This document shows positions 5,375 through 39,076 of a stretch of 64,000 nucleotides of DNA, in pieces (the stretch's first letter is position 1; the number at the start of each line of letters is the position of its first letter). The DNA comes from a virus (Duplodnaviria; Heunggongvirae; Uroviricota; Caudoviricetes): the IMG/VR virus record IMGVR_UViG_2681813421_000002, positions 22,586 through 86,585 of that record; one strand, given 5' to 3'. The notes under the pieces were generated by a model that worked only from the letters and a program-made list of their open reading frames with translations, was not told the DNA's origin and searched no databases. The position numbers and the translations under genes were made by a program.

Positions 5375-6115
5375 ATGAGCACTGATTCATCAATAGAAAA
5401 GGAAAATGAAAAATCATCCGCCCAAAATCTGATAGAAGATGCTGTAAAAGATAAGTTGTTTAATAAGGTTTTTGCCTACATTTTTATTTCATTTTTAATT
5501 TCTAACTGGCGAGATATATTTATATTGTTGAAGTCAAAAGATGATGTTATGTATACATTATCTATGGTGTTTGTTGGGGAAAAGATTCCATTATTTGGGA
5601 ATGTTTTTGTACCCTCATTCGTAGCTCATTTTGTCTTGCCTTTTATTTATGGTGTTGTGGCTTCAATATTAGCCCCAATGTTAACTTTACTAATTTCTAT
5701 GGTGACTGGCACAATATACGCTAAATTGAGAGAGATAGATAAAATTGAAGACAAAAAAGAACAAGTAAGAAAAATTAACAGAGACATTAATGATCTTACT
5801 AAGAAACGGAAAGACGTTGAAGAGCGTCTTGAAAAAGAAAAAGAAGAACATGAATCATTAAAAAGAAAGGTAGAAGAAGTTAGGGAACAGATTGAATGTG
5901 TGGATAGCGATATCCGTCATGTTATTAAATTATATAGAGAGAAAGGTGAGAGCTTAAATTCGTTGGATGATTTTTATGAATTTTTTACTGCCGTGAAAAA
6001 CTCATCTTTTCGTTCGGGTGATACAAATGACAGGGAGACACTTGAGGAGATTCTCTCAAAGCTTTCTGATTCACTTGAAAAAATTAAATGCGATGCTAAT
6101 AAAAAGGTGGGATAA
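5375..6115 (+). CDS. Membrane protein with long C-terminal charged coiled-coil (unknown function; AT-rich gene)
   Basis: 246 aa; hydrophobic segments (FAYIFISFLISNW; FVPSFVAHFVLPFIYGVVASILAPMLTLLISMVTGTIY) followed by K/E-rich heptad-like region; visibly AT-rich versus flanks. Confidence 0.6.
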   Translation: MSTDSSIEKENEKSSAQNLIEDAVKDKLFNKVFAYIFISFLISNWRDIFILLKSKDDVMYTLSMVFVGEKIPLFGNVFVPSFVAHFVLPFIYGVVASILAPMLTLLISMVTGTIYAKLREIDKIEDKKEQVRKINRDINDLTKKRKDVEERLEKEKEEHESLKRKVEEVREQIECVDSDIRHVIKLYREKGESLNSLDDFYEFFTAVKNSSFRSGDTNDRETLEEILSKLSDSLEKIKCDANKKVG

Positions 6116-8889: not shown

Positions 8890-9513
8890 ATGAAGGACGG
8901 TGTAGTGAAGTTAAGGGTTTTAGGGACCGCGCTCGCGGCTATGTTGGGATGCGTATCTGTTAATACAGCCAATGCAACTGCGTTACCTGCACAATTCAGG
9001 GCAGGGCAGCAGGTTATGAATAACGCTGGTGGGGATCATTCACAAGCGGCAATTATGGACTTTTGCAAGAGAGAGGGCATTCCATTACGGCCTGTTGGAA
9101 CTCAGTTTATTGGTAAAACTGACTTTTGCGTTTTTGCATATACAGCATATCTGACGGACAAAGCTATAACAAAAACAGGTTATTCAACCAAAGATACTCT
9201 TTCCAGATTAAGTCAGGGATGGCAGCAATTCGAAGTGTATCGCCAGCAAGGATTAGGTGAGTTATTACAACCACTTTTTATGCTTGCGTTGGTGCCCGAG
9301 GGGCAGCAATTTTTGGTTAAAAAGGGAATGCTTCGCCAAAGTGATATTGCCGGGTTCGATAGCATGATGGCTTATGAGCGCAAACTAACCGAGCAGCGAA
9401 ATAAAAAACCATCTGCTTCATGTGTGCAAAGTAAAACAGCAGAATACAGTGCAGTAGCCGGGCCTTTAGCCAAACAAATGGCAGAGCAATGGTGTAAAAA
9501 ATACGGGCAATAA
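8890..9513 (+). CDS. Secreted protein with N-terminal signal peptide
   Basis: 207 aa; LRVLGTALAAMLGCVSVNTANA signal-like N-terminus. Confidence 0.5.
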   Translation: MKDGVVKLRVLGTALAAMLGCVSVNTANATALPAQFRAGQQVMNNAGGDHSQAAIMDFCKREGIPLRPVGTQFIGKTDFCVFAYTAYLTDKAITKTGYSTKDTLSRLSQGWQQFEVYRQQGLGELLQPLFMLALVPEGQQFLVKKGMLRQSDIAGFDSMMAYERKLTEQRNKKPSASCVQSKTAEYSAVAGPLAKQMAEQWCKKYGQ

Positions 9514-12249: not shown

Positions 12250-12269
12250 AATGTTAGAAAACTAATTTA
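12250..12269 (-). promoter_or_regulatory. Operator-like motif (AATTAGTTTTCTAACAT on minus strand)
   Basis: Member of dispersed operator family; lies at 3-prime end of ref-like gene, upstream of the small-ORF/c4-like region. Confidence 0.45.
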
Positions 12270-12840
12270 TTAATTCAATCGCCATCTGATACAACGCCAT
12301 TTCATCGGCATTGTGCCGTATGAAATCTGCTTTTCCGCCTATTTTTCCATCAGCATGAACAGGGACCAGCCAGGGATATTGTTCTCGGACCTCGGCTGGC
12401 GCTGCGTACTGGTGGTGCCATTTACACAAAGGGAGGACATATTTATGTGCGTTCTCTGCCGTTCTCCCGAAGATATGGTGCAGGGATACCACTGGGCTAT
12501 GTTGCCCGTGAATATGGCAGGCAATGCAGGGGAGAGTACCGATAGCGGTCTGTATCCGGCGTTCATCGGCTGTGAGTGATCTGCCCTTCAGGCCGCGTGA
12601 CGTGCGTGTTTTTTTGGGCGGAGCGGATACAGCTTTATCTTTTCTCCGCTGTTCATATTGCTTTGCTTTTTCAATTTTCTTTTGCCGATATTCAGGCGAT
12701 GCGGCTTTTTCTCTCGCTCGCTGCTGCTGGCGTTGAGCTTGTTGAAGGCGCTTTGCCCTTTGTTCCTCTCGCCAGGCTGGGTCAGCCAATTTTTGCATGG
12801 CTTTTTGTCTCTGTTTCTCCCAATAGCTCTGTTTCTGCAT
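12262..12840 (-). CDS. ref: Ref-like HNH-type endonuclease (recombination enhancement function)
   Basis: 192 aa; basic K/R/Q-rich N-terminus, RGLKGR, Cys/His cluster (CIACHIHGQHSPVVSLHHI...CKWHH) consistent with P1 Ref architecture. Confidence 0.55.
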   Translation of the reverse strand: MQKQSYWEKQRQKAMQKLADPAWREEQRAKRLQQAQRQQQRAREKAASPEYRQKKIEKAKQYEQRRKDKAVSAPPKKTRTSRGLKGRSLTADERRIQTAIGTLPCIACHIHGQHSPVVSLHHIFGRTAENAHKYVLPLCKWHHQYAAPAEVREQYPWLVPVHADGKIGGKADFIRHNADEMALYQMAIELIN

Positions 12841-12904
12841 GATGGCTGCCTCTTACTTTTCAGCTATTTTTCTATGATTGATCAAAACAGTTAGATATTC
12901 AAAA

Positions 12905-12922
12905 TTGATTTTCTAACACAAA
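12905..12922 (+). promoter_or_regulatory. Operator-like motif (TTGATTTTCTAACACAAA) in divergent promoter region
   Basis: Between ref-like start (12840) and plus-strand operon start (13113). Confidence 0.5.
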
Positions 12923-21258: not shown

Positions 21259-22661
21259 TCACTATTACCAAAGAACGCCTGCTGACAATCCAGCAGTGGC
21301 GCGAAACATACGGACCTGGTAGCAACGTTGTACTGCCAGCAGAAGAAGCGGAAGAACTGGCACGAATTGCTCTGGCATCGCTGGAAGCAAAACCAGTTGC
21401 TTATATTTTCAAACATCCGGCCGGGAAATTATTCTGGGCTTTAACGGATGAAAGCAATAAAGAGCAAGCGGACGTTATTCCTGTTTATGCTGCCGCGCCT
21501 GCGTCGGTTGTGCCGGATAATGCATCAGAGCCTCTTGCTTATGCTTACAAAGAGCTTACGCCTGAGATTATGCGCAACCATTTAGCTGTATTCGAGCGAT
21601 ATGGAATAGCCCCAAACGATAGCTCTACCACAATTCAGGCACTGCGAATCGCGCTGGATGGTATAGAGCGGAGCGACGCCATGCTTCAGTCCGGAAACTT
21701 TCGGGAAAACAAGAATTCGTCAACCAATAATTTTCGGGAAATCGCGGAAACGTCAACCAACTATCCGGTAATTCCTAGTGAGCTGTTGTCCGCAATCCTG
21801 AAGGTTGCCAAGATTCGTGCCGATTTCGATGATTTTGACGGTGACAGGCGAGGTATCGATGATTGTCTGGATGAGGCTGAGCAAGAGCTTATCGTTACCA
21901 TTAACAAATATGCCAGTCAGTTGGCAGCAGAACCGATAGCGACTAATGACGTTCGAGAGCAAACAGCCGTTCCGCCAGTTCCGGTAATGCAGGCTGATGT
22001 CGCGCAGGCAATTGAAAAACTCAAACGGAAATTAGTGGAATGCAATCGCTATAACTACTGTGCAGATGCAGTTAAAGGCGTAGAGGATGCCTGCCGTGCT
22101 GTTAGCTATAGCCAAGCCGACAATCAGCCAGCATCTGGCAACCAGGCTGCCGAATCCAATCGCGGTAATGAGTGGACCGGCAATCCTGATATTGATAACG
22201 CCATCATCATGCTCGATCGCATAGATACGCTGGAAAGTTGCGATGATGACCGTATTGAGGCTGTTAAGGCTGTTTTGCGTAGACTGGCTGGCAACTATCC
22301 GGATATTCCGGATAGTTCGGTGCCAGCGCCAGGAAAGGGCGTCACCGGTGAACGTATCCGCATTAAGCCGCATGTTTATCGCGAACTGGTTAACCGTCTC
22401 CACGATACAGCGATCAAGTGTGCTGGCACCCAGCAATTACGAGAAAGAATTAGCCGTGTTTTGGGCGACGTTATTACACCAGATCATCATAAACAAGCCG
22501 AGAAAAGTGACCTGGAAAGGTGTCACCTTGAGGCGGCATTAAACATTAAGCCGGGGCATACGCTTGGCATTATTGATGCACTATTGGTTCATAAGATGGC
22601 CAGGGCTTTATTGCCGCTGGTGGCTGAAAAGCATGAGGTGGACCATGCCAACGAAAGCTGA
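21255..22661 (+). CDS. Hypothetical protein with internal tandem repeat and C-terminal motif shared with 13113-13724
   Basis: 468 aa; repeated FRENK/FREIAE segment; YRELVNRLHD...GTQQLRER. Confidence 0.5.
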   Translation: MITITKERLLTIQQWRETYGPGSNVVLPAEEAEELARIALASLEAKPVAYIFKHPAGKLFWALTDESNKEQADVIPVYAAAPASVVPDNASEPLAYAYKELTPEIMRNHLAVFERYGIAPNDSSTTIQALRIALDGIERSDAMLQSGNFRENKNSSTNNFREIAETSTNYPVIPSELLSAILKVAKIRADFDDFDGDRRGIDDCLDEAEQELIVTINKYASQLAAEPIATNDVREQTAVPPVPVMQADVAQAIEKLKRKLVECNRYNYCADAVKGVEDACRAVSYSQADNQPASGNQAAESNRGNEWTGNPDIDNAIIMLDRIDTLESCDDDRIEAVKAVLRRLAGNYPDIPDSSVPAPGKGVTGERIRIKPHVYRELVNRLHDTAIKCAGTQQLRERISRVLGDVITPDHHKQAEKSDLERCHLEAALNIKPGHTLGIIDALLVHKMARALLPLVAEKHEVDHANES

Positions 22662-24121: not shown

Positions 24122-24343
24122 ATGCAATCCATTAACTTCCGTACCGCGCGTGGCAACCTTTCTGAAGTGCTCAACAATGTTGAAGCCGGGGAAGAGGTTG
24201 AAATCACCCGCAGAGGCCGTGAGCCAGCAGTAATTGTCAGCAAGGCTACTTTTGAAGCCTACAAAAAAGCGGCGCTGGATGCCGAATTTGCATCCCTGTT
24301 TGACACCCTGGACTCCACCAACAAGGAACTGGTTAACCGATAA
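24122..24343 (+). CDS. phd: Phd antitoxin
   Basis: [73 protein letters not shown] matches P1 Phd as I recall it. Confidence 0.9.
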
Positions 24344-24723
24344 TGAGGCATATATCACCGGAAGAACTTATTGCGCTTCATGATGCGAATATAAGCCGCT
24401 ACGGCGGCCTGCCGGGAATGTCAGATCCGGGCAGGGCAGAGGCCATTATCGGGAGAGTTCAGGCCAGAGTTGCCTACGAAGAGATCACCGACCTTTTCGA
24501 AGTCTCCGCCACCTACCTGGTGGCTACGGCGAGAGGGCATATATTCAATGATGCCAATAAGCGTACCGCGCTAAACAGTGCGCTGCTATTTCTACGCCGT
24601 AACGGTATACAGGTATATGATGATCCCGTGCTGGTGGAGCTTGCAGTGGGGGCTGCAACTGGTGAAATCCCCGTATCTTCAGTAGCGAAAAAACTACGTG
24701 AACTATATGGTTCCAATATTTGA
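24343..24723 (+). CDS. doc: Doc toxin (Fic-fold kinase)
   Basis: 126 aa, start overlaps phd stop; matches P1 Doc in sequence, length and gene arrangement. Confidence 0.9.
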
Positions 24724-24755
24724 AAAGAAGCCCGCTCAACCAGGCGGGCTTCTTA
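24724..24755. terminator. Hairpin between convergent doc and terminase-like genes (weak bidirectional terminator)
   Basis: GAAGCCCGC...GCGGGCTTC stem; flanking A/T runs are short. Confidence 0.35.
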
Positions 24756-24758
24756 CTA

Positions 24759-25853
24759 TCACTCAATGATTTTTTCTGCTGTCAGCCAGCTAATTTCTTG
24801 CCTGTCTTTCGGCGGTTTTAGCATGTGGGCGTATTCAGCGACATTCTCCCACGGAATTGTTTTTGCCCACTCAACGATAGCATTGTGATCTGCAGTGAAG
24901 AGTGGAATGGTGTGCGATTTCAACCATTCTAATGTCGTGACGCCATGTTTTTTGGCGTGGTGCTGCGCATGATGCCGGGCTATCACTCGTAATGGTATTG
25001 TCCATTCACTACCATCAGGCATCGAAAAGCGCATTGTCTTCGGCATATCTGATTCAAGAACAGCCTCCCTAATACCAGGGAACTCACCAAGAATCATACG
25101 ACGATAGTCATCACTATTTCGCCCGCCATACCTTTCGGCAAAATGATCAAGATATTCTTGGGTAATAAATGGTGAATCCTCCGCACTCAGCTTAATGGCT
25201 TTATATACACCACTCGGATTATCTTCAGCTAAAGCACGTCCATGATGTGAATCATAAAAAAAGCCTATTTCCTCTGGTGACGGAATTGAAGTGAGCAATA
25301 TGCGTGAATCACCACTAGTCATGCTTGCCCACACAATGCTGTATGCCCGATCGCTGATATGTGCGGAATCCACAATAATGAATAAAAGATGGTCGGCGTA
25401 GTGACCTGCAATGCTATCTTCATAGTTAAGGCGGAAGTTACAAAAGCACATTCCCCAAAATTCATTGAACATCAGACCGCTATCACCGACCTTAAAATAC
25501 TCAATGATAAAAGGTTGTTTTTTCAGCAATGCCTCCCAACATTGCCACACATATGCAACAATTCCTCTTTTGCAAACATTTGATTTTGGATAAACAATTA
25601 CTGTCCGGGAATCAGGATACATAATCGTATAAAGGGTACTAATAACAGCAAGCACTTGCGGTCGTCCGATCCCATACGGAGTGGTGACAGTAGCTTTTGC
25701 ATTATTGGGCTGTATAGCTTCAACAATTTGTTGTTGCTGGTGGCTTAAATCAATATCAAACAATTCTTTTGCTGCCAGTACCCAATTGTCTTTATATTTC
25801 TCCACCAGCGACAGCCAGCGCGGATCTTTATAAATATTGCTCTTAGTCGCCAT
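24759..25853 (-). CDS. Terminase large-subunit-like ATPase paralog with degenerate Walker A/B motifs
   Basis: Aligns with PacB-like N-terminal domain (SHQQQQI..., FYDSHH..., NPxG) but Walker A GHGTGKS is replaced by PYGIGRP and Walker B ILDEASGIS by IIVDSAHIS; start taken at MATKSNIYKD. Confidence 0.6.
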   Translation of the reverse strand: MATKSNIYKDPRWLSLVEKYKDNWVLAAKELFDIDLSHQQQQIVEAIQPNNAKATVTTPYGIGRPQVLAVISTLYTIMYPDSRTVIVYPKSNVCKRGIVAYVWQCWEALLKKQPFIIEYFKVGDSGLMFNEFWGMCFCNFRLNYEDSIAGHYADHLLFIIVDSAHISDRAYSIVWASMTSGDSRILLTSIPSPEEIGFFYDSHHGRALAEDNPSGVYKAIKLSAEDSPFITQEYLDHFAERYGGRNSDDYRRMILGEFPGIREAVLESDMPKTMRFSMPDGSEWTIPLRVIARHHAQHHAKKHGVTTLEWLKSHTIPLFTADHNAIVEWAKTIPWENVAEYAHMLKPPKDRQEISWLTAEKIIE

Positions 25854-26610
25854 CTGCCACTTCCTTAACTTCTTCTTTGGCCTGTTCTGCAATCGCCGCA
25901 CGGCATTTCGCCCTGGCTGTAGCGATTGCTTCAGCTCGCACATCGTCTGGAATCGTTGACGTGATATACATATCCAGTTCTTCGGCACGGAATACTGTTT
26001 GGTCCAGATATTCGCGTAGCATCCAGGTAAATTCGAAATCACACGCGATAATCTCTGCGCCACCTTCTGCACCATTTGGGAAATGAATAAATGCCTGTTT
26101 AGCCAAACCGATAACACGACATGCGGTTGCCAAAACAGCGACAACCAGGTTTACATTTTCACACGCTACGGGCTGGTTAACGCCGGAGATTACTCCATTT
26201 AACTGTCGGTTATATGGAAGGTAGTTTGAGATGCGTTCTACGCGCCATGTGCCAGTCAGGCTGCCATTTTTAAATATAATTGGTGTAACGGATAGCCCAA
26301 GCTCGCGTATAAGTCGTTGCGCTATAGCAGGATCATTAAACAGGTCTAATGCTACACATTCGAAAGACTGCGCAAGGGCAAACAGTTCTTCCAGAGAGTA
26401 GTCTTTGCCCCTGGCGGTGATGTAACGACGAACGCCGCTGTCTGCATCACTCCATATAGCTACGCCATGCTCTTCATTCAGCTCTTCATTAAAGCCGAGA
26501 TACGTCATGATAGTGCGTTCAATCGTGTCAAACGGCAGTGACATGTCGGCGTTAACAGCCACCAGCAGGCCATTACGCAAGCGGTATTGAATTGTTTTAG
26601 TGCTTTCCAT
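25843..26610 (-). CDS. Hypothetical protein
   Basis: 255 aa; stop overlaps start of the terminase-like paralog. Confidence 0.45.
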   Translation of the reverse strand: MESTKTIQYRLRNGLLVAVNADMSLPFDTIERTIMTYLGFNEELNEEHGVAIWSDADSGVRRYITARGKDYSLEELFALAQSFECVALDLFNDPAIAQRLIRELGLSVTPIIFKNGSLTGTWRVERISNYLPYNRQLNGVISGVNQPVACENVNLVVAVLATACRVIGLAKQAFIHFPNGAEGGAEIIACDFEFTWMLREYLDQTVFRAEELDMYITSTIPDDVRAEAIATARAKCRAAIAEQAKEEVKEVADGD

Positions 26611-26616
26611 GTCAAA

Positions 26617-27057
26617 TCACTCCACAACAAACCAGTCACAGGCCAGCAGGTCGCCAACTGAAGGCACCCACGGAACAACTACACCTTGTGCATTTTTTAA
26701 GGCGAAATAAGCACCATACGGAACGAGGTCGCCGGGGAAATATCCCTTAATGGCTTCCATTCGTGCCGGGTACTGTCCTTCAGGAACCAGCCAGCAGAAT
26801 TGGTTTTCGCCGTTCCACCCGCGTCGAGCAACTTTCTTGCCTTCCTTCAGCCACATCAGCGCGTCTGAAAAGTCGGCTGCTTCAAGGTCGATTTCTTCTT
26901 GCTGGGTGGTGATGCCACCAGCAGAAATAGTTACGCTCCCGGTAAGATTAATCATCACGCCGTTGTCATCCGTAATGATGACCGTGGTTCCATTTTTTTT
27001 GTGAGCTTTGTATTTGGGACGGAACTTAAAAAGCTCTTTCGTTGCCATGTTATTCAT
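26617..27057 (-). CDS. DUF2829-family protein (Tad2-like fold) with N-terminal extension
   Basis: 146 aa; FSDALMWLKEGKKVARRGWNG ... VGDLLACDWFVVE signature. Confidence 0.55.
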   Translation of the reverse strand: MNNMATKELFKFRPKYKAHKKNGTTVIITDDNGVMINLTGSVTISAGGITTQQEEIDLEAADFSDALMWLKEGKKVARRGWNGENQFCWLVPEGQYPARMEAIKGYFPGDLVPYGAYFALKNAQGVVVPWVPSVGDLLACDWFVVE

Positions 27058-27071
27058 AGTCTTTTCTCTGC

Positions 27072-27566
27072 TTATAACTTTTCGTACTGAAGCGGTGAAC
27101 GCTTAATTTCAAAGTGGCCTTCCGATGTGCTACCAAAGCCACCAGCACCACGCTCCGTTTCGTTGAGTTCCTCAACCTCGACTAGTGAGACTTGTTCAAC
27201 ACGCTCAAAAATTCCTTGCATGACAGCCATTCCAGGCTTGAGACAAACGCCTTCCCCGCCGGGATCAGTAATCAGTTTTGCCATGATTTCGCCGCGATAA
27301 TCGGAGTCGATAATTCCTACGCAGTTAGCCAGGCGAGTATGTTTTTTGCAGCCCAATCCTGATCGCGGATAGAGTTTCAGACACCAGCCGGGCGGGATCT
27401 CCATAGCCAGTCCGGTATACACCCACCAGCTTGAGGAAATTGCACCATTGCTATCGACGCATGGTTTTATTTCAACAGCCTCAAAATCCATCGCCGCCGA
27501 TCCGGAGGTGGCATAAGCTGGAAGTTTTGCTGCCGGATGTAGGCGTTTCACTTTTACGTAAATCAT
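27072..27566 (-). CDS. dut: dUTP diphosphatase (dUTPase)
   Basis: 164 aa; motifs PRSGLG, GIIDSDYRGEI, RGAGGFGSTS. Confidence 0.8.
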   Translation of the reverse strand: MIYVKVKRLHPAAKLPAYATSGSAAMDFEAVEIKPCVDSNGAISSSWWVYTGLAMEIPPGWCLKLYPRSGLGCKKHTRLANCVGIIDSDYRGEIMAKLITDPGGEGVCLKPGMAVMQGIFERVEQVSLVEVEELNETERGAGGFGSTSEGHFEIKRSPLQYEKL

Positions 27567-28039
27567 TGTTTTTTAGCTCTCTGCGTGAAGGTGTAAACCC
27601 GACGTTTGATATGTGGAACGGTAGGAACAGGAAGACAGGAACTTTCAATAACTCCTTGCTCATCCAGCGATCGCACCGCCCGCAAGAACTGCGACGTGTC
27701 GCCGCCAAACTGGCGGGCATAGGTGCTGCCGTTATGAAGTATTTGAGCTATTACCCGAGTTTTTGTCTGGCTGTCACGATATGCGAATAGCCGCACGGCC
27801 TCTTCTGGCGCAATCGCTAACTGATAGCCTTTCCCGGCACGGTGTCGAATGAATCCATGCGCCAGTAGGTTTTTGAGTTCGTTACGAGTGCGAACAGATC
27901 CGTAACCCAGGAAGTGTGGATTGATAACGACTGGCTTAAACCATTCCGTAGGTGCTTTAGCTAATAGAGCTAACAGCTTCCCGGATAATTCTGGATAGGA
28001 AGACGGGTAACAATTCAGAGATGGGTAATAAGTTTTCAC
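27563..28039 (-). CDS. Hypothetical protein
   Basis: 158 aa ORF in operon. Confidence 0.45.
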   Translation of the reverse strand: MKTYYPSLNCYPSSYPELSGKLLALLAKAPTEWFKPVVINPHFLGYGSVRTRNELKNLLAHGFIRHRAGKGYQLAIAPEEAVRLFAYRDSQTKTRVIAQILHNGSTYARQFGGDTSQFLRAVRSLDEQGVIESSCLPVPTVPHIKRRVYTFTQRAKKQ

Positions 28040-28380
28040 CGACGCCCCCTTGCAGGATATCGACCTGCATTAGTATCCGGTGCAATAAAGCCGGTAGTGG
28101 GGCGAGTGAAAGCGAGATTAATCTTCTCGACCATAGTGCGATAATTTTCCTGATAGTGGGCCAGGAGTTTTTCGGCGGCAATGATGGTTACTTTCCGGAC
28201 GTAGCTTTCTGCTTCCTCCAGATTTCGCCAGTTTTTTTCGAGGGTAAACACAGGGACGGCCTCAAGCCCGGTCATGATGCCGAACACAACGACAGCATGA
28301 CTGTTCTTAACACCAGCGGCGAAGGTTACGGTGTAACCATCCACCTTGAAGCGTCTTGATTCCGTGATTTGACTCTGCAA
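28036..28380 (-). CDS. Hypothetical protein (first gene of operon downstream of cre)
   Basis: 114 aa ORF immediately downstream of operator-like motif. Confidence 0.45.
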   Translation of the reverse strand: MQSQITESRRFKVDGYTVTFAAGVKNSHAVVVFGIMTGLEAVPVFTLEKNWRNLEEAESYVRKVTIIAAEKLLAHYQENYRTMVEKINLAFTRPTTGFIAPDTNAGRYPARGRR

Positions 28381-28435
28381 AGCACCCTCCTAAATAGGCG
28401 AGGGTACTTTACAGCAAAGATGTTAATCTAAAAAG

Positions 28436-28455
28436 ATGTGTTAGAAATTTAATTT
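28436..28455 (-). promoter_or_regulatory. Operator-like motif (AATTAAATTTCTAACACATC on minus strand)
   Basis: Between cre stop and start of the 114-aa gene. Confidence 0.5.
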
Positions 28456-29482
28456 ATAAATCCATCAGGCGGCTATTAGCCCCCACAGACACGCCGCCAC
28501 GGCGCAGATACCGCATAAGTGTTTCCGGTTTCTTCCAGGTTCCTTCCTGCATAATCTCCACCATAGAGACCTGCTTTTCAGCCATATCGATAGCGGCCCC
28601 GACGCGTGCACTATGCCCGGTCCACGTCCGGTATCTTCCTTTGTTTGGCGTAGCATCTCCTTTATTCAGCAACACCCAGGCGTCGCTGAATATTTTCTCC
28701 ATTGCAGGTGCAGTAAGGGGCGTTATCGTGATCCTGGCCTTATTGCTACGGTGTATCGGCGGGAACAGCACTGCGTCAGGATGTTCGCGAAGCCCGGAAA
28801 CATCCAGCCAGTCATTCAGCACAGCGGTAGTGCGACGGGAAAGCACCTTATCAAGCCCGGCGGCGGTCGTTATTGTCTTCGTGTGTGAAATATGTAGCGT
28901 GACAGTGTCACCTGTTTGGTCCAGATCTCCTACACGAATACGCGAGATTTCCGACATACGCATCAGCGTATTGTATGCAACAAAGAGAAAAGCCCGGTTG
29001 CGCAGGTCCACCAGCCGTTCAGACCTGGACAACAGGACGTCGAGCAGTTTCAGATCGTCCCACCGCAGCGGTATAGCCTGGCCTGTTCGTTCGCCTTTTT
29101 CAGTTGCCGCTTCGCGCCGGATGCGCCGCATAGCCAGAGAAACACTTTTATCATCCGAAAGTGGTGGAAGGCCACAATGCGAAAGCAGCATGTTCAGCAT
29201 GGCGTAGTGCTTATCAATGGTGGTCGAAGCCAGATCGGCATCATGCAGCTGAAGAAAATACTCGCGGGCCATTTCTGGTGAGATCGGAAACCAGGCAAGC
29301 TGGCGAGCGTGACACCAGCGCGCCCAGGAATGAAACACCAAACGGAGGTCGCGCAGAGTATTCGGCGCATAAGCTCCCTGGTCATTCATGAACCGCATAA
29401 AGTTTTCTGCGGCTTCCTGGTACTCTTTGCCAATGTTGCGCAGAAAACCACCGGAACTGCCAGAGATAATTAATTCACCCAT
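28454..29482 (-). CDS. cre: Cre-family tyrosine recombinase (diverged from P1 Cre)
   Basis: 342 aa; colinear with P1 Cre including catalytic-region motifs (AYNTLMRMSEISRIRVGDL; WTGHSARVGAA; GTW; MRYLR) but many substitutions. Confidence 0.85.
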   Translation of the reverse strand: MGELIISGSSGGFLRNIGKEYQEAAENFMRFMNDQGAYAPNTLRDLRLVFHSWARWCHARQLAWFPISPEMAREYFLQLHDADLASTTIDKHYAMLNMLLSHCGLPPLSDDKSVSLAMRRIRREAATEKGERTGQAIPLRWDDLKLLDVLLSRSERLVDLRNRAFLFVAYNTLMRMSEISRIRVGDLDQTGDTVTLHISHTKTITTAAGLDKVLSRRTTAVLNDWLDVSGLREHPDAVLFPPIHRSNKARITITPLTAPAMEKIFSDAWVLLNKGDATPNKGRYRTWTGHSARVGAAIDMAEKQVSMVEIMQEGTWKKPETLMRYLRRGGVSVGANSRLMDL

Positions 29483-29633
29483 GAAACTATTTGACCTCTA
29501 TATACAGATGACGCTACGCGAAAAATATAAAAATGACAGGGTAGCTATAAGTTAATTTTCAAAATACAAGCCTTTGATTCGAGGCACGTATTTTCAGTGA
29601 TGTCAACACTGTTCATCTACACATGATTATAGC

Positions 29634-29667
29634 CTAACTTTAAATAATGCCAATTATTTAAAGTTAT
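29634..29667. other. lox-like recombination site (13-bp inverted arms, 8-bp spacer)
   Basis: CTAACTTTAAATA-ATGCCAAT-TATTTAAAGTTAT; same architecture and partial identity with loxP, located about 150 bp upstream of cre. Confidence 0.65.
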
Positions 29668-29762
29668 AAAATGCCGATTTTTTTTAATCCATCATAGATT
29701 GATGATGACCAGTAACACGTTGCCTTCATGGTCTTTAATTTGCGAAGTGTGGTTTCTACGGT

Positions 29763-29779
29763 TGGTTTTCTAAAATTGA
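29763..29779 (+). promoter_or_regulatory. Operator-like motif (TTGGTTTTCTAAAATTG)
   Basis: Variant core TTTCTAAAA upstream of repressor-candidate gene. Confidence 0.35.
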
Positions 29780-29845
29780 TGACAAAAAATCACAGTTCGA
29801 TCCTTTACTCACCCTGTTATTCGACATAAATTTGTCATAGTAATT

Positions 29846-29864
29846 TTATGTTAGAAAACTAAAT
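29846..29864 (-). promoter_or_regulatory. Operator-like motif (ATTTAGTTTTCTAACATAAA on minus strand)
   Basis: 13 bp upstream of the start codon of 29877-30914. Confidence 0.5.
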
Positions 29865-29876
29865 CGAGTAGGAATA

Positions 29877-30914
29877 ATGAGTAAGAAGTCGATCGAGAAA
29901 GAGTACAAACGGTTCCTGCAAACCGCTGAACGGTGGAAAGAGCTGGTGGTCGCAAACTCTGTTTTCCATGATACCAGTTATGCTGGCGAGGAATTCCGCC
30001 ATGTTGCATTAACGCATGACCAAAACATATTAGAAGAAGCTGAAAAATGTCTTGCTGAATGGAAAGCCTTCGTTGACATGTGCCGCGATGCCGACGGCAA
30101 AGCGTCGAACATTGTTGAGTCTGTATATTCTCCGATCCCATTCATCATTGAGGACACCAATCAAAGCACGCATGTCGTTGTGCAAAGCGCTACAACAACA
30201 CGTACATTTACACGTGAACAATTGCTAAAAAAATACGACAAAATCATAAAGAAAAGCCTGAAAAATAGGGTTTTTTCTCAAATCGTAGGTGCTCTTGAAG
30301 AAGAACAGCGCTTCTTTGAAGCTGAGCCTGAAGGCGAGATCTACCGGGCGCGTAAAGAGGCATATACAGATGTTGTGCTGACAACAAACATCGAAGGCAG
30401 CAATGCCCTTTCTCGCTTTAGAGTTGGCGCACATGGCGCATTGGTTTTCGCAAGACTACCGAAGACAACGATCCCCGTTGTCAATAATGTTGGTGAACGC
30501 CGGAGCATTACAATTTATTCTGGCGTCGAATCGGTACCATGCAGCCTTCTCGGCGATTTTAACTTATATCGTGTTCGTGACCTGGAAAAACACCAGCCAA
30601 GCTACGTTGCGAAGTCGTACATCTTAAGGAACATCGATATTCGCAATGAAAGCCTTAAGCAGAAATCCGCTAAGATGCTGGAGGATGCCGATCCGGCTAT
30701 TCGCCATATCATTGAACGTAAGATACGTACATCACGTGAAGCAATGGCAAGGTTGGATAAAATGGATCTGGAATTGTTAGACGTAATGATGGCCTCTGGA
30801 GACGACCTGACCGGCATTAAACTGAATGAAGCTCGTAAAAAATACGGCAAAGCAATCGAAGAACGTTACGGATACACATTCCCCCAAACGCAGTACGCCG
30901 CGAAGCTCTGGTAA
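29877..30914 (+). CDS. Candidate C1-type immunity repressor (positional analog of P1 c1)
   Basis: 345 aa; lies between lox/cre and pacB, convergent with pacB, flanked upstream by two operator-like motifs; I do not recognise the protein sequence itself. Confidence 0.4.
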   Translation: MSKKSIEKEYKRFLQTAERWKELVVANSVFHDTSYAGEEFRHVALTHDQNILEEAEKCLAEWKAFVDMCRDADGKASNIVESVYSPIPFIIEDTNQSTHVVVQSATTTRTFTREQLLKKYDKIIKKSLKNRVFSQIVGALEEEQRFFEAEPEGEIYRARKEAYTDVVLTTNIEGSNALSRFRVGAHGALVFARLPKTTIPVVNNVGERRSITIYSGVESVPCSLLGDFNLYRVRDLEKHQPSYVAKSYILRNIDIRNESLKQKSAKMLEDADPAIRHIIERKIRTSREAMARLDKMDLELLDVMMASGDDLTGIKLNEARKKYGKAIEERYGYTFPQTQYAAKLW

Positions 30915-38703: not shown

Positions 38704-38905
38704 AAGACGTGCATTGATGATTAGATGCAGCATGTACCGTTACTCTCTGCCGGACCATCATCAATGAACACCTTAAAAAGACCTTCCGTGGCTCAACATG
38801 TATTGTCGTTTACTCCGCAAAGTGCTCTCTCTGAAACCACTTTCCGCACTAAACCTGCTGAACTTTGGCCTGCACGGTGCCAAAGCGTGCTCTTGCGTTA
38901 CTACA

Positions 38906-38921
38906 CTTTTCTAACACTTTA
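38906..38921 (+). promoter_or_regulatory. Operator-like motif (TTTTCTAACACTTTAA)
   Basis: Core TTTCTAACAC inside the structured noncoding region. Confidence 0.4.
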
Positions 38922-39055: not shown

Positions 39056-39076
39056 AATTTAGTTTTCTAACATATT
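39056..39076 (+). promoter_or_regulatory. Operator-like motif (AATTTAGTTTTCTAACATATT)
   Basis: Overlaps the 3-prime end of gene 39075-40283; placed to control minus-strand transcription into the 38.3-39.0 kb noncoding region. Confidence 0.45.

Follow-up and report, generated by a model that had tools for sequence, protein, structure and literature searches.

The stretch of phage DNA analysed here, a 64,000-nucleotide window (positions 22,586 to 86,585 of IMG/VR record IMGVR_UViG_2681813421_000002), contains a compact six-gene operon directly downstream of a recombinase gene. We propose that this is probably an early accessory operon of a D6-type phage-plasmid, silenced in the lysogen by a D6-type C1 repressor and switched on when C1 is absent, whether on infection or on induction. 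A copy of a repeated 19-bp operator-like motif and a conserved RNA hairpin lie at its head. The predicted products include a dUTPase, a Tad2 homologue, and a dead terminase paralogue, in keeping with the accessory, non-structural content ascribed to these genes in an earlier annotation made from the DNA letters without database searches (the sequence-only reading).

Identity of the element and organisation of the operon

The element is assigned to the D6-type phage-plasmids, not to P1 proper, because its recombinase is Dre accompanied by an exact rox site and its C1 is that of D6. The recombinase gene (28454-29482, minus strand; 342 aa), called cre in the sequence-only reading, encodes a protein identical to D6 Dre at 338 of 342 residues and 41% identical to P1 Cre. 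The 32-bp rox at 29635-29666 is identical to the annotated D6 site. The presumed trans-acting repressor, the 345 aa C1 (29877-30914, plus strand), is 100% identical to D6 C1. Positions 25870-28500 match phage D6 at 98% nucleotide identity, and D6 orf113-orf117 (GenBank NC_050154/MF356679; dut, orf2, and orf3 in AY753669) occupy the same position, in the same order and on the same strand, with the same operator copy. The proteins of the window are identical to their D6 counterparts at 113/114 (orf117), 153/158 (orf116), 163/164 (dUTPase), 144/146 (Tad2-like), and 240/255 (IsaA) residues.

All six genes are on the minus strand. Gene 1 (28380-28036; 114 aa), the homologue of D6 orf117, has a TTG start codon with an AGGAGG Shine-Dalgarno sequence 5 nt upstream, and gene 2 (28039-27563; 158 aa), the homologue of orf116, starts with GTG. 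They are followed by gene 3 (27566-27072; 164 aa), predicted to encode a trimeric dUTPase, gene 4 (27057-26617; 146 aa), encoding a DUF2829/Tad2-like protein, gene 5 (26610-25843; 255 aa), encoding an IsaA homologue, and gene 6 (25853-24759; 364 aa), encoding a paralogue of the ATPase domain of the large terminase PacB. For gene 6 we adopted the ATG at 25853 that PGAP calls in a 99.8% identical plasmid, the annotation of which contains exactly the same six genes; a mechanical list of open reading frames (ORFs) had extended it to 26144.

The five junctions measure -4, -4, +14, +6, and -11 nt. The genes had been described as overlapping, which holds for three of the junctions, while the remaining two are very short gaps. 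With a common strand, minimal spacing, and a single convincing minus-strand terminator, the genes have the features of a single transcription unit, and the earlier description of six genes after the recombinase, closing a compact unit at a terminator, was confirmed. That terminator, a hairpin at 24725-24754 (minus strand) identified by terminator scan and folding, has a folding energy of -20.1 kcal/mol (z -4.5 against shuffles) followed by a U-rich tail, and in the other orientation it also serves the convergent phd-doc genes.

A candidate D6-type C1 operator at the operon head

The sequence-only reading had noticed an operator-like motif at the head of the operon, and the motif proved to be real. 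It is one copy of a repeated 19-bp motif, T(A/G)TGTTAGAAAAYTAATTT. The copy in question, TGTGTTAGAAATTTAATTT (28437-28455, plus strand), runs in the direction opposite to that of the operon and overlaps the dre stop codon (28454-28456) 57 nt upstream of the gene 1 start. Its position weight matrix (PWM) score of 26.7 places it among the best sites of the window. With up to one mismatch, the 14-nt core of the motif has 16 occurrences in the window where 1.68 are expected, a count reached by none of 100 shuffles, and an exact 9-mer core occurs 12 times. With the PWM, the window yields 15 sites and the complete D6 genome 17.

Copies are found upstream of c1, lpa, ref, repL, icd-ant, and hrdC-dmt, both in the window and in D6, where the sites lie at 197 (c1), 4630 (lpa), 22465 (repL), 21260 (icd-ant), 76630 (ref), and 64114/64129 (hrdC-dmt). 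The c1-proximal copy in the window (29847-29865; score 26.6) is 12 nt upstream of c1. This distribution mirrors the P1 C1 regulon, c1 itself included; the P1 record annotates C1 operators at ref, mat, and ssb. We aligned the operon head with five relatives, ranging from D6 to ~80-87% identical plasmids of E. fergusonii, S. Typhi, and E. marmotae. The operator core is kept in all five, down to ~80% identity at the lowest, with one substitution in each of two relatives. A stretch ~10 nt further downstream, by contrast, is scrambled. From its position and conservation, we infer that the 19-bp motif is a D6-type C1 operator.

A P1-type C1 operator at this locus is ruled out, since the 17-bp P1 operator consensus ATTGCTCTAATAAATTT has no match in the window at up to three mismatches. 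Conversely, the PWM finds no strong copy of the 19-bp motif in the first 26 kb of P1. D6 is heteroimmune to P1, and P1 C1 is 283 aa long against 345 aa here, so that an operator unlike that of P1 is to be expected. An explicit operator consensus and regulon for D6-type C1 were not found described in the literature covered, which did not extend to two primary D6 papers (Sauer & McDermott 2004; Gilcrease & Casjens 2018) that may already hold some of this.

Other operator copies in the window have distinctive arrangements. At 787-820, two inverted copies overlap and form a bivalent site, which comparison with D6 places upstream of the hrdC-dmt homologues. Strong copies at 12250-12268 and 12902-12920 flank the ref homologue (12262-12840) on either side. 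Copies at 38900-38918 and 39056-39074 (minus strand) lie directly downstream of a pmgS-like gene and face a stretch with no ORF of at least 70 aa; D6 has the same paired arrangement at 8910-9084, beside tRNA genes. The target of this pair could be a small gene or an RNA.

A conserved hairpin and the question of read-through from dre

Folding and conservation together reveal a 15-bp RNA hairpin at 28375-28414 (minus strand). Its 3' arm, GAGGGTGCTTTGCAG, holds the Shine-Dalgarno sequence and TTG start codon of gene 1, and its 5' arm is an invariant block, CTGTAAAGTACCCTC. The hairpin folds at -25.7 kcal/mol (z -4.8), and none of 200 shuffles folds as well. It is retained in all five relatives, with one compensatory UA to CG pair and three wobble changes. 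The first impression of CTGTAAAGTACCCTC was of a promoter element, which was given up once the block was recognised as a hairpin arm. The idea that a conserved TGTAAAGTAC block is a recurrent regulatory motif was likewise dropped; the block occurs only once in the window and is better explained as the hairpin 5' arm. These features suggest that the gene 1 hairpin may insulate the operon from dre read-through. No earlier description of a hairpin over the gene 1 ribosome site was found in the literature covered, again without the primary D6 papers.

The 73-bp spacer between dre and gene 1 contains a weak promoter candidate, TTTTTA-17-TAAAGT, just downstream of the motif; transcription from it would start inside the hairpin 5' arm. 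The only consensus promoter in 24300-30200 is TTGGCA-16-TATAAT (29653->29626), which lies upstream of dre and matches 11 of 12 consensus positions. The scan detected no terminator between dre and gene 1, so read-through from one into the other is possible. As an observation on the recombination site itself, the TTGGCA -35 hexamer of the dre promoter (29626-29653, minus strand) is the spacer of rox (29635-29666); therefore recombination at rox would sit on the dre promoter.

The main alternative, conceivable though in our view unlikely, is a seven-gene unit that begins with dre and includes all six operon genes, transcribed constitutively and weakly from the rox-region promoter while the element is a plasmid. 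In that case the motif at the end of dre would have some other role, for example in C1-dependent looping to the operator near c1 or in trimming dre transcripts. Both the sole consensus promoter upstream of dre and the terminator-free spacer would be expected of such a unit, and dre and genes 1-3 co-occur in essentially every D6-like plasmid. Yet the conserved hairpin would occlude the first ribosome site in just those transcripts that carry its 5' arm, and the operator is conserved in the relatives. P1 offers a further argument against it. The P1 operator Omat, which lies in reverse orientation ahead of mat and overlaps the stop codon of ref, has the same geometry as the motif at 28437-28455, and it is annotated as controlling the downstream gene.

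Several points nonetheless weigh against silencing by C1 from this site. A consensus scan of the spacer found no sigma-70 promoter, and the -35 hexamer of the weak candidate, TTTTTA, is poor. The -10-like hexamer inside this operator reads TAACAC, TAACGC, or TAACAA, without the critical final T; other motif copies read TAACAT or TAATAT. With a strong promoter upstream of dre and no terminator before gene 1, the operon could be no more than the 3' end of the dre transcript. Covariation in the hairpin amounts to one compensatory pair among five sequences, the binding of C1 at 28437-28455 is assigned by motif class, and four of the six operon proteins are without assignable function. The immunity control claimed in the sequence-only reading thus stands as regards a repressor-operator-like site at the operon head; it was overstated in resting on motif position where no consensus promoter was found.

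Synteny, distribution, and origin of the operon

The operon was compared with the corresponding region of P1 and P7, where the order is cra-cre-c8-[Oref]-ref-[Omat]-mat. The six-gene set is accordingly not universal among such genomes, c8-ref-mat standing in its place. The sequence-only reading had put cra and ref at this position in P1; ref does lie downstream of cre, but cra is upstream, and the downstream order is c8, ref, mat. In D6-type genomes ref and mat are relocated rather than lost, each lying near its own motif copies.

Among PLSDB plasmids, 115 carry dre (at >=80% coverage), 126 carry genes 1-3, and 34 carry gene 6. Divergent relatives that are ~80% identical keep the order dre-1-2-3-isaA, although the E. 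marmotae record ends after gene 2. The Tad2-like gene encodes 225 aa in E. fergusonii and 146 aa here, and is absent from S. Typhi pK91. Gene 6 was found in none of the divergent relatives compared (E. fergusonii, S. Typhi pK91, and E. marmotae to the end of its record). Because genes 1-3 occur in 126 plasmids against 115 with dre, and keep their order at ~80% identity, we regard them as part of the D6-lineage backbone and not as swapped-in cargo.

The view of the sequence-only reading, in which cargo has taken the place of the P1 genes here, is therefore improbable for the operon as a whole if a recent acquisition is meant. It draws on the presence of c8-ref-mat at this place in P1 and P7, on the variable occurrence of the Tad2-like gene and the PacB paralogue, and on the G+C content of the latter (42.9% against 47.6% in the window). 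In addition, the isaA-IS1-isaB segment of P1 is the recognised variable region RD-2 of P1-like plasmids (PMC6906374). Besides the constancy of genes 1-3, which accompany dre in essentially all D6-like plasmids, the view is opposed by the relocation of ref and mat in D6 and by D6 itself, which has five of the six genes and the dre region of which was sequenced in 2004. What survives of the cargo proposal is the variability of the Tad2-like gene and the PacB paralogue. The dre-distal arrangement is best described, from these comparisons, as an old rearrangement at the level of the lineage, the tail of which varies, and not as a recent replacement. The locus is in large part already known: five of the genes entered GenBank in 2004 and 2018, the six-gene version is present in at least 34 sequenced plasmids, and Tad2 was assigned by others.

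Two further alternatives concern the nature of the control. The repeated motif might instead be part of a promoter or be recognised by a regulator other than C1, leaving the operon outside immunity control; the motif has no likeness to the P1 operator at the three-mismatch level, and some copies supply promoter-like hexamers (TTAGAA and TAACAT). We doubt this strongly, given that the motif distribution mirrors the P1 C1 regulon, with a copy 12 nt upstream of c1, and that the first 26 kb of P1 lack a strong copy. A late operon dependent on Lpa was considered since a late promoter serves mat, which holds the analogous position in P1, but this is extremely improbable, the -22 box CAAGTGACT taken from three annotated P1 late promoters being absent from the dre-gene 1 spacer.

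Predicted products of genes 1-5

For genes 1 and 2 the only matches are to PHROG families without an assigned function, phrog_1968 (4e-48) and phrog_6669 (1e-96), respectively; Pfam, NCBIfam, PADLOC, and the PDB gave none. Neither orf117 nor orf116 could be upheld as the counterpart of P1 c8, cra, or mat, as no significant similarity was detected. The PADLOC defence models gave no match for any of the six proteins at E<=0.01.

Gene 3 matches PF00692 (1.7e-14) and the NCBIfam equivalog NF001862 (121.5 bits against a cut-off of 103), and its translation shows the motifs GIIDSDYRGE and GGFGST. On these matches it is classed as a genuine trimeric dUTPase. The closest plasmid also has an annotated dCTP deaminase, which is not relevant to this operon, as it sits in a segment absent from the window.

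Gene 4 carries a Tad2-family (DUF2829) domain at residues 58-146, behind a 57-aa N-terminal extension. It scores 81.6 bits against PF11195, which Pfam now names Tad2-like (cut-off 25), and also matches AcrIIA7 and SPO1 Gp34.65. Residues 58-146 align end to end with Tad2 proteins of solved structure (PDB 9eib, ModTad2, 8e-21; 8v3e, 1e-20), with 41 of 89 residues (46%) identical to ModTad2. These alignments identify gene 4 as a predicted member of the Tad2 family of signal-sequestering anti-Thoeris proteins. The Tad2 proteins SPO1 Gp34.65, ModTad2, and SptTad2 lack the N-terminal extension of gene 4, other alleles of which encode 225 or 281 aa. Tad2 has already been reported in 93% of D6-like and 56% of P1-like phage-plasmids (bioRxiv 10.1101/2025.09.12.675607).

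Gene 5 belongs to phrog_2326 (3e-133) and its product is 48% identical to P1 IsaA over 258 aa. A sequence search of the PDB returned nothing for this protein, and its AlphaFold 2 (AF2) model (predicted local distance difference test, pLDDT, 81.7) gave weak nuclease-like fold matches only. The C-terminus of IsaA in the window differs from that in D6 because of the overlap with gene 6.

Gene 6 encodes a dead PacB paralogue

The product of gene 6 is 37% identical to PacB residues 10-264 (E 3e-56) and belongs to phrog_5902 (9e-165). The Walker A motif of PacB, GHGTGKSS, is replaced by PYGIGRPQ, and by GIGQKT, GIGHKS, or GIGETS in relatives; Walker B, ILDEAS in PacB, is replaced by IIVDSA, and by VTEAA, VMDAA, or VINSA in relatives. 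The Walker A lysine and Walker B aspartate are thus lost in every aligned member of the family. With its PacB ATPase-domain homology and the loss of both Walker motifs, the degenerate terminase paralogue of the sequence-only reading is borne out. The length of the family is conserved at 51-66% identity, and for this reason we consider gene 6 a maintained pseudo-enzyme and not a decaying gene. Its G+C content of 42.9%, against 47.8-50.7% in the other five genes and 47.6% in the window, fits a separate origin, and the stop/start overlap of genes 5 and 6 suggests that their translation may be coupled.

Similarity to PacB stops at residue 264, and the nuclease domain is replaced by a domain of ~100 aa. 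The C-terminal 105 aa (24759-25076, minus strand; MPDGSxWxVP...DTxPLF...DWAxNNMxWxDV) match 225 representative clusters, mostly stand-alone phage-type proteins of ~100 aa; the domain is also the C-terminus of phrog_17928 proteins. A profile of this domain found nothing in Pfam or the PDB, nor did a PDB sequence search with the whole protein. The AF2 model (pLDDT 57.8, below 40 at the C-terminus) was too poor for a structure search. No earlier description of this architecture was found in the literature covered, the primary D6 papers lying outside it. P1 isaB was considered as a remnant of the PacB paralogue and rejected, there being no similarity.

D6 lacks gene 6 and instead carries pdcA, on the opposite strand, between doc and isaA. 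In both D6 and P1, pdcA follows doc, and it is missing from the window. When 24680-24760 was compared with D6 5687-5960, the doc 3' end and terminator of the window were found to resemble the 3' end of D6 pdcA. This suggests that a deletion or recombination may have joined doc to the tail of pdcA where gene 6 is present.

Phage T4 offers a partial parallel in vs.8, a stand-alone paralogue of the terminase ATPase domain that keeps Walker A and B and activates EcAvs2 (PMC13601566). Both are extra copies of the ATPase domain without the nuclease domain, but gene 6, unlike vs.8, has lost both Walker motifs and gained an unrelated C-terminal domain. Since EcAvs2 and Upx sense the terminase ATPase domain and T4 has vs.8, a role for gene 6 as a terminase mimic is conceivable, although this is pure speculation. 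IsaA and the dead PacB paralogue might form a two-gene counter-defence module, the paralogue either blunting sensors (Avs1-3, Upx) as a terminase mimic or titrating PacA and so poisoning the packaging enzyme of rival P1- or D6-type phages; we rate the whole idea a long shot.

Proposed mechanism and significance

Under control by C1, as we propose it, the repressor would bind the motif at 28437-28455 and either block the weak promoter (TTTTTA/TAAAGT) or halt RNA polymerase arriving from the dre promoter. Transcripts reading through from dre would fold the hairpin and leave gene 1 untranslated, and those starting inside the hairpin 5' arm would have a free ribosome site and be translated. The overlaps of -4, -4, and -11 nt may couple translation along the operon. 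The products would then condition the newly infected cell: the dUTPase would clear dUTP, the Tad2-like protein would act as a sponge for Thoeris signals and possibly for other cyclic-nucleotide signals, and IsaA and the dead PacB paralogue would contribute a further function.

The locus shows how first-expressed accessory genes may be arranged in D6-type phage-plasmids. A predicted anti-Thoeris sponge and a dUTPase seem to have been placed under the immunity repressor instead of being linked to plasmid functions. The working operator consensus for D6-type C1 should aid annotation of the early regulon in more than 100 sequenced D6-like plasmids from E. coli, Shigella, and Salmonella. The gene 1 hairpin is a possible insulator against dre read-through, and the dead terminase paralogue is joined to a very common, unnamed small phage domain. 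The current understanding of P1-like elements is not overturned. The notable parts are the hairpin and the PacB paralogue fusion, both so far unstudied as far as we found in the literature covered, which leaves the primary D6 papers aside.

Comparison with known systems

The hairpin resembles fold-back inhibition in IS10, by analogy only, in that upstream sequence pairs to hide a ribosome site. In IS10, the stem forms only in transcripts that start outside the promoter of the element itself.

In P1, the cre-distal C1 operators govern non-structural genes directly downstream of the recombinase gene, as we propose for the operon in the window. The operator sequence differs between the two regions, however, and the genes are unrelated. 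The distal part of the operon has its counterpart elsewhere in the P1 group. In P1 proper, ssb-isaA lies behind the C1 operator Ossb (Op21). The P1-group elements SJ46 and Ro157c2YLVW carry DUF2829-isaA after ssb, with 93-94% nucleotide identity to the window across the DUF2829/isaA junction. In the P1 variant MH422554 and in vB_EcoM-813R1, isaA and a PacB paralogue (51% identical) follow ssb, their stop and start codons again overlapping. The operon in the window instead joins the isaA module to dre-orf117-orf116-dut and not to ssb, and no ssb is annotated in D6. On these comparisons the operon is best described as a mosaic: its proximal half is a fixture of the D6 lineage, and its distal half is a variable, mobile early-operon module common to the P1 group.

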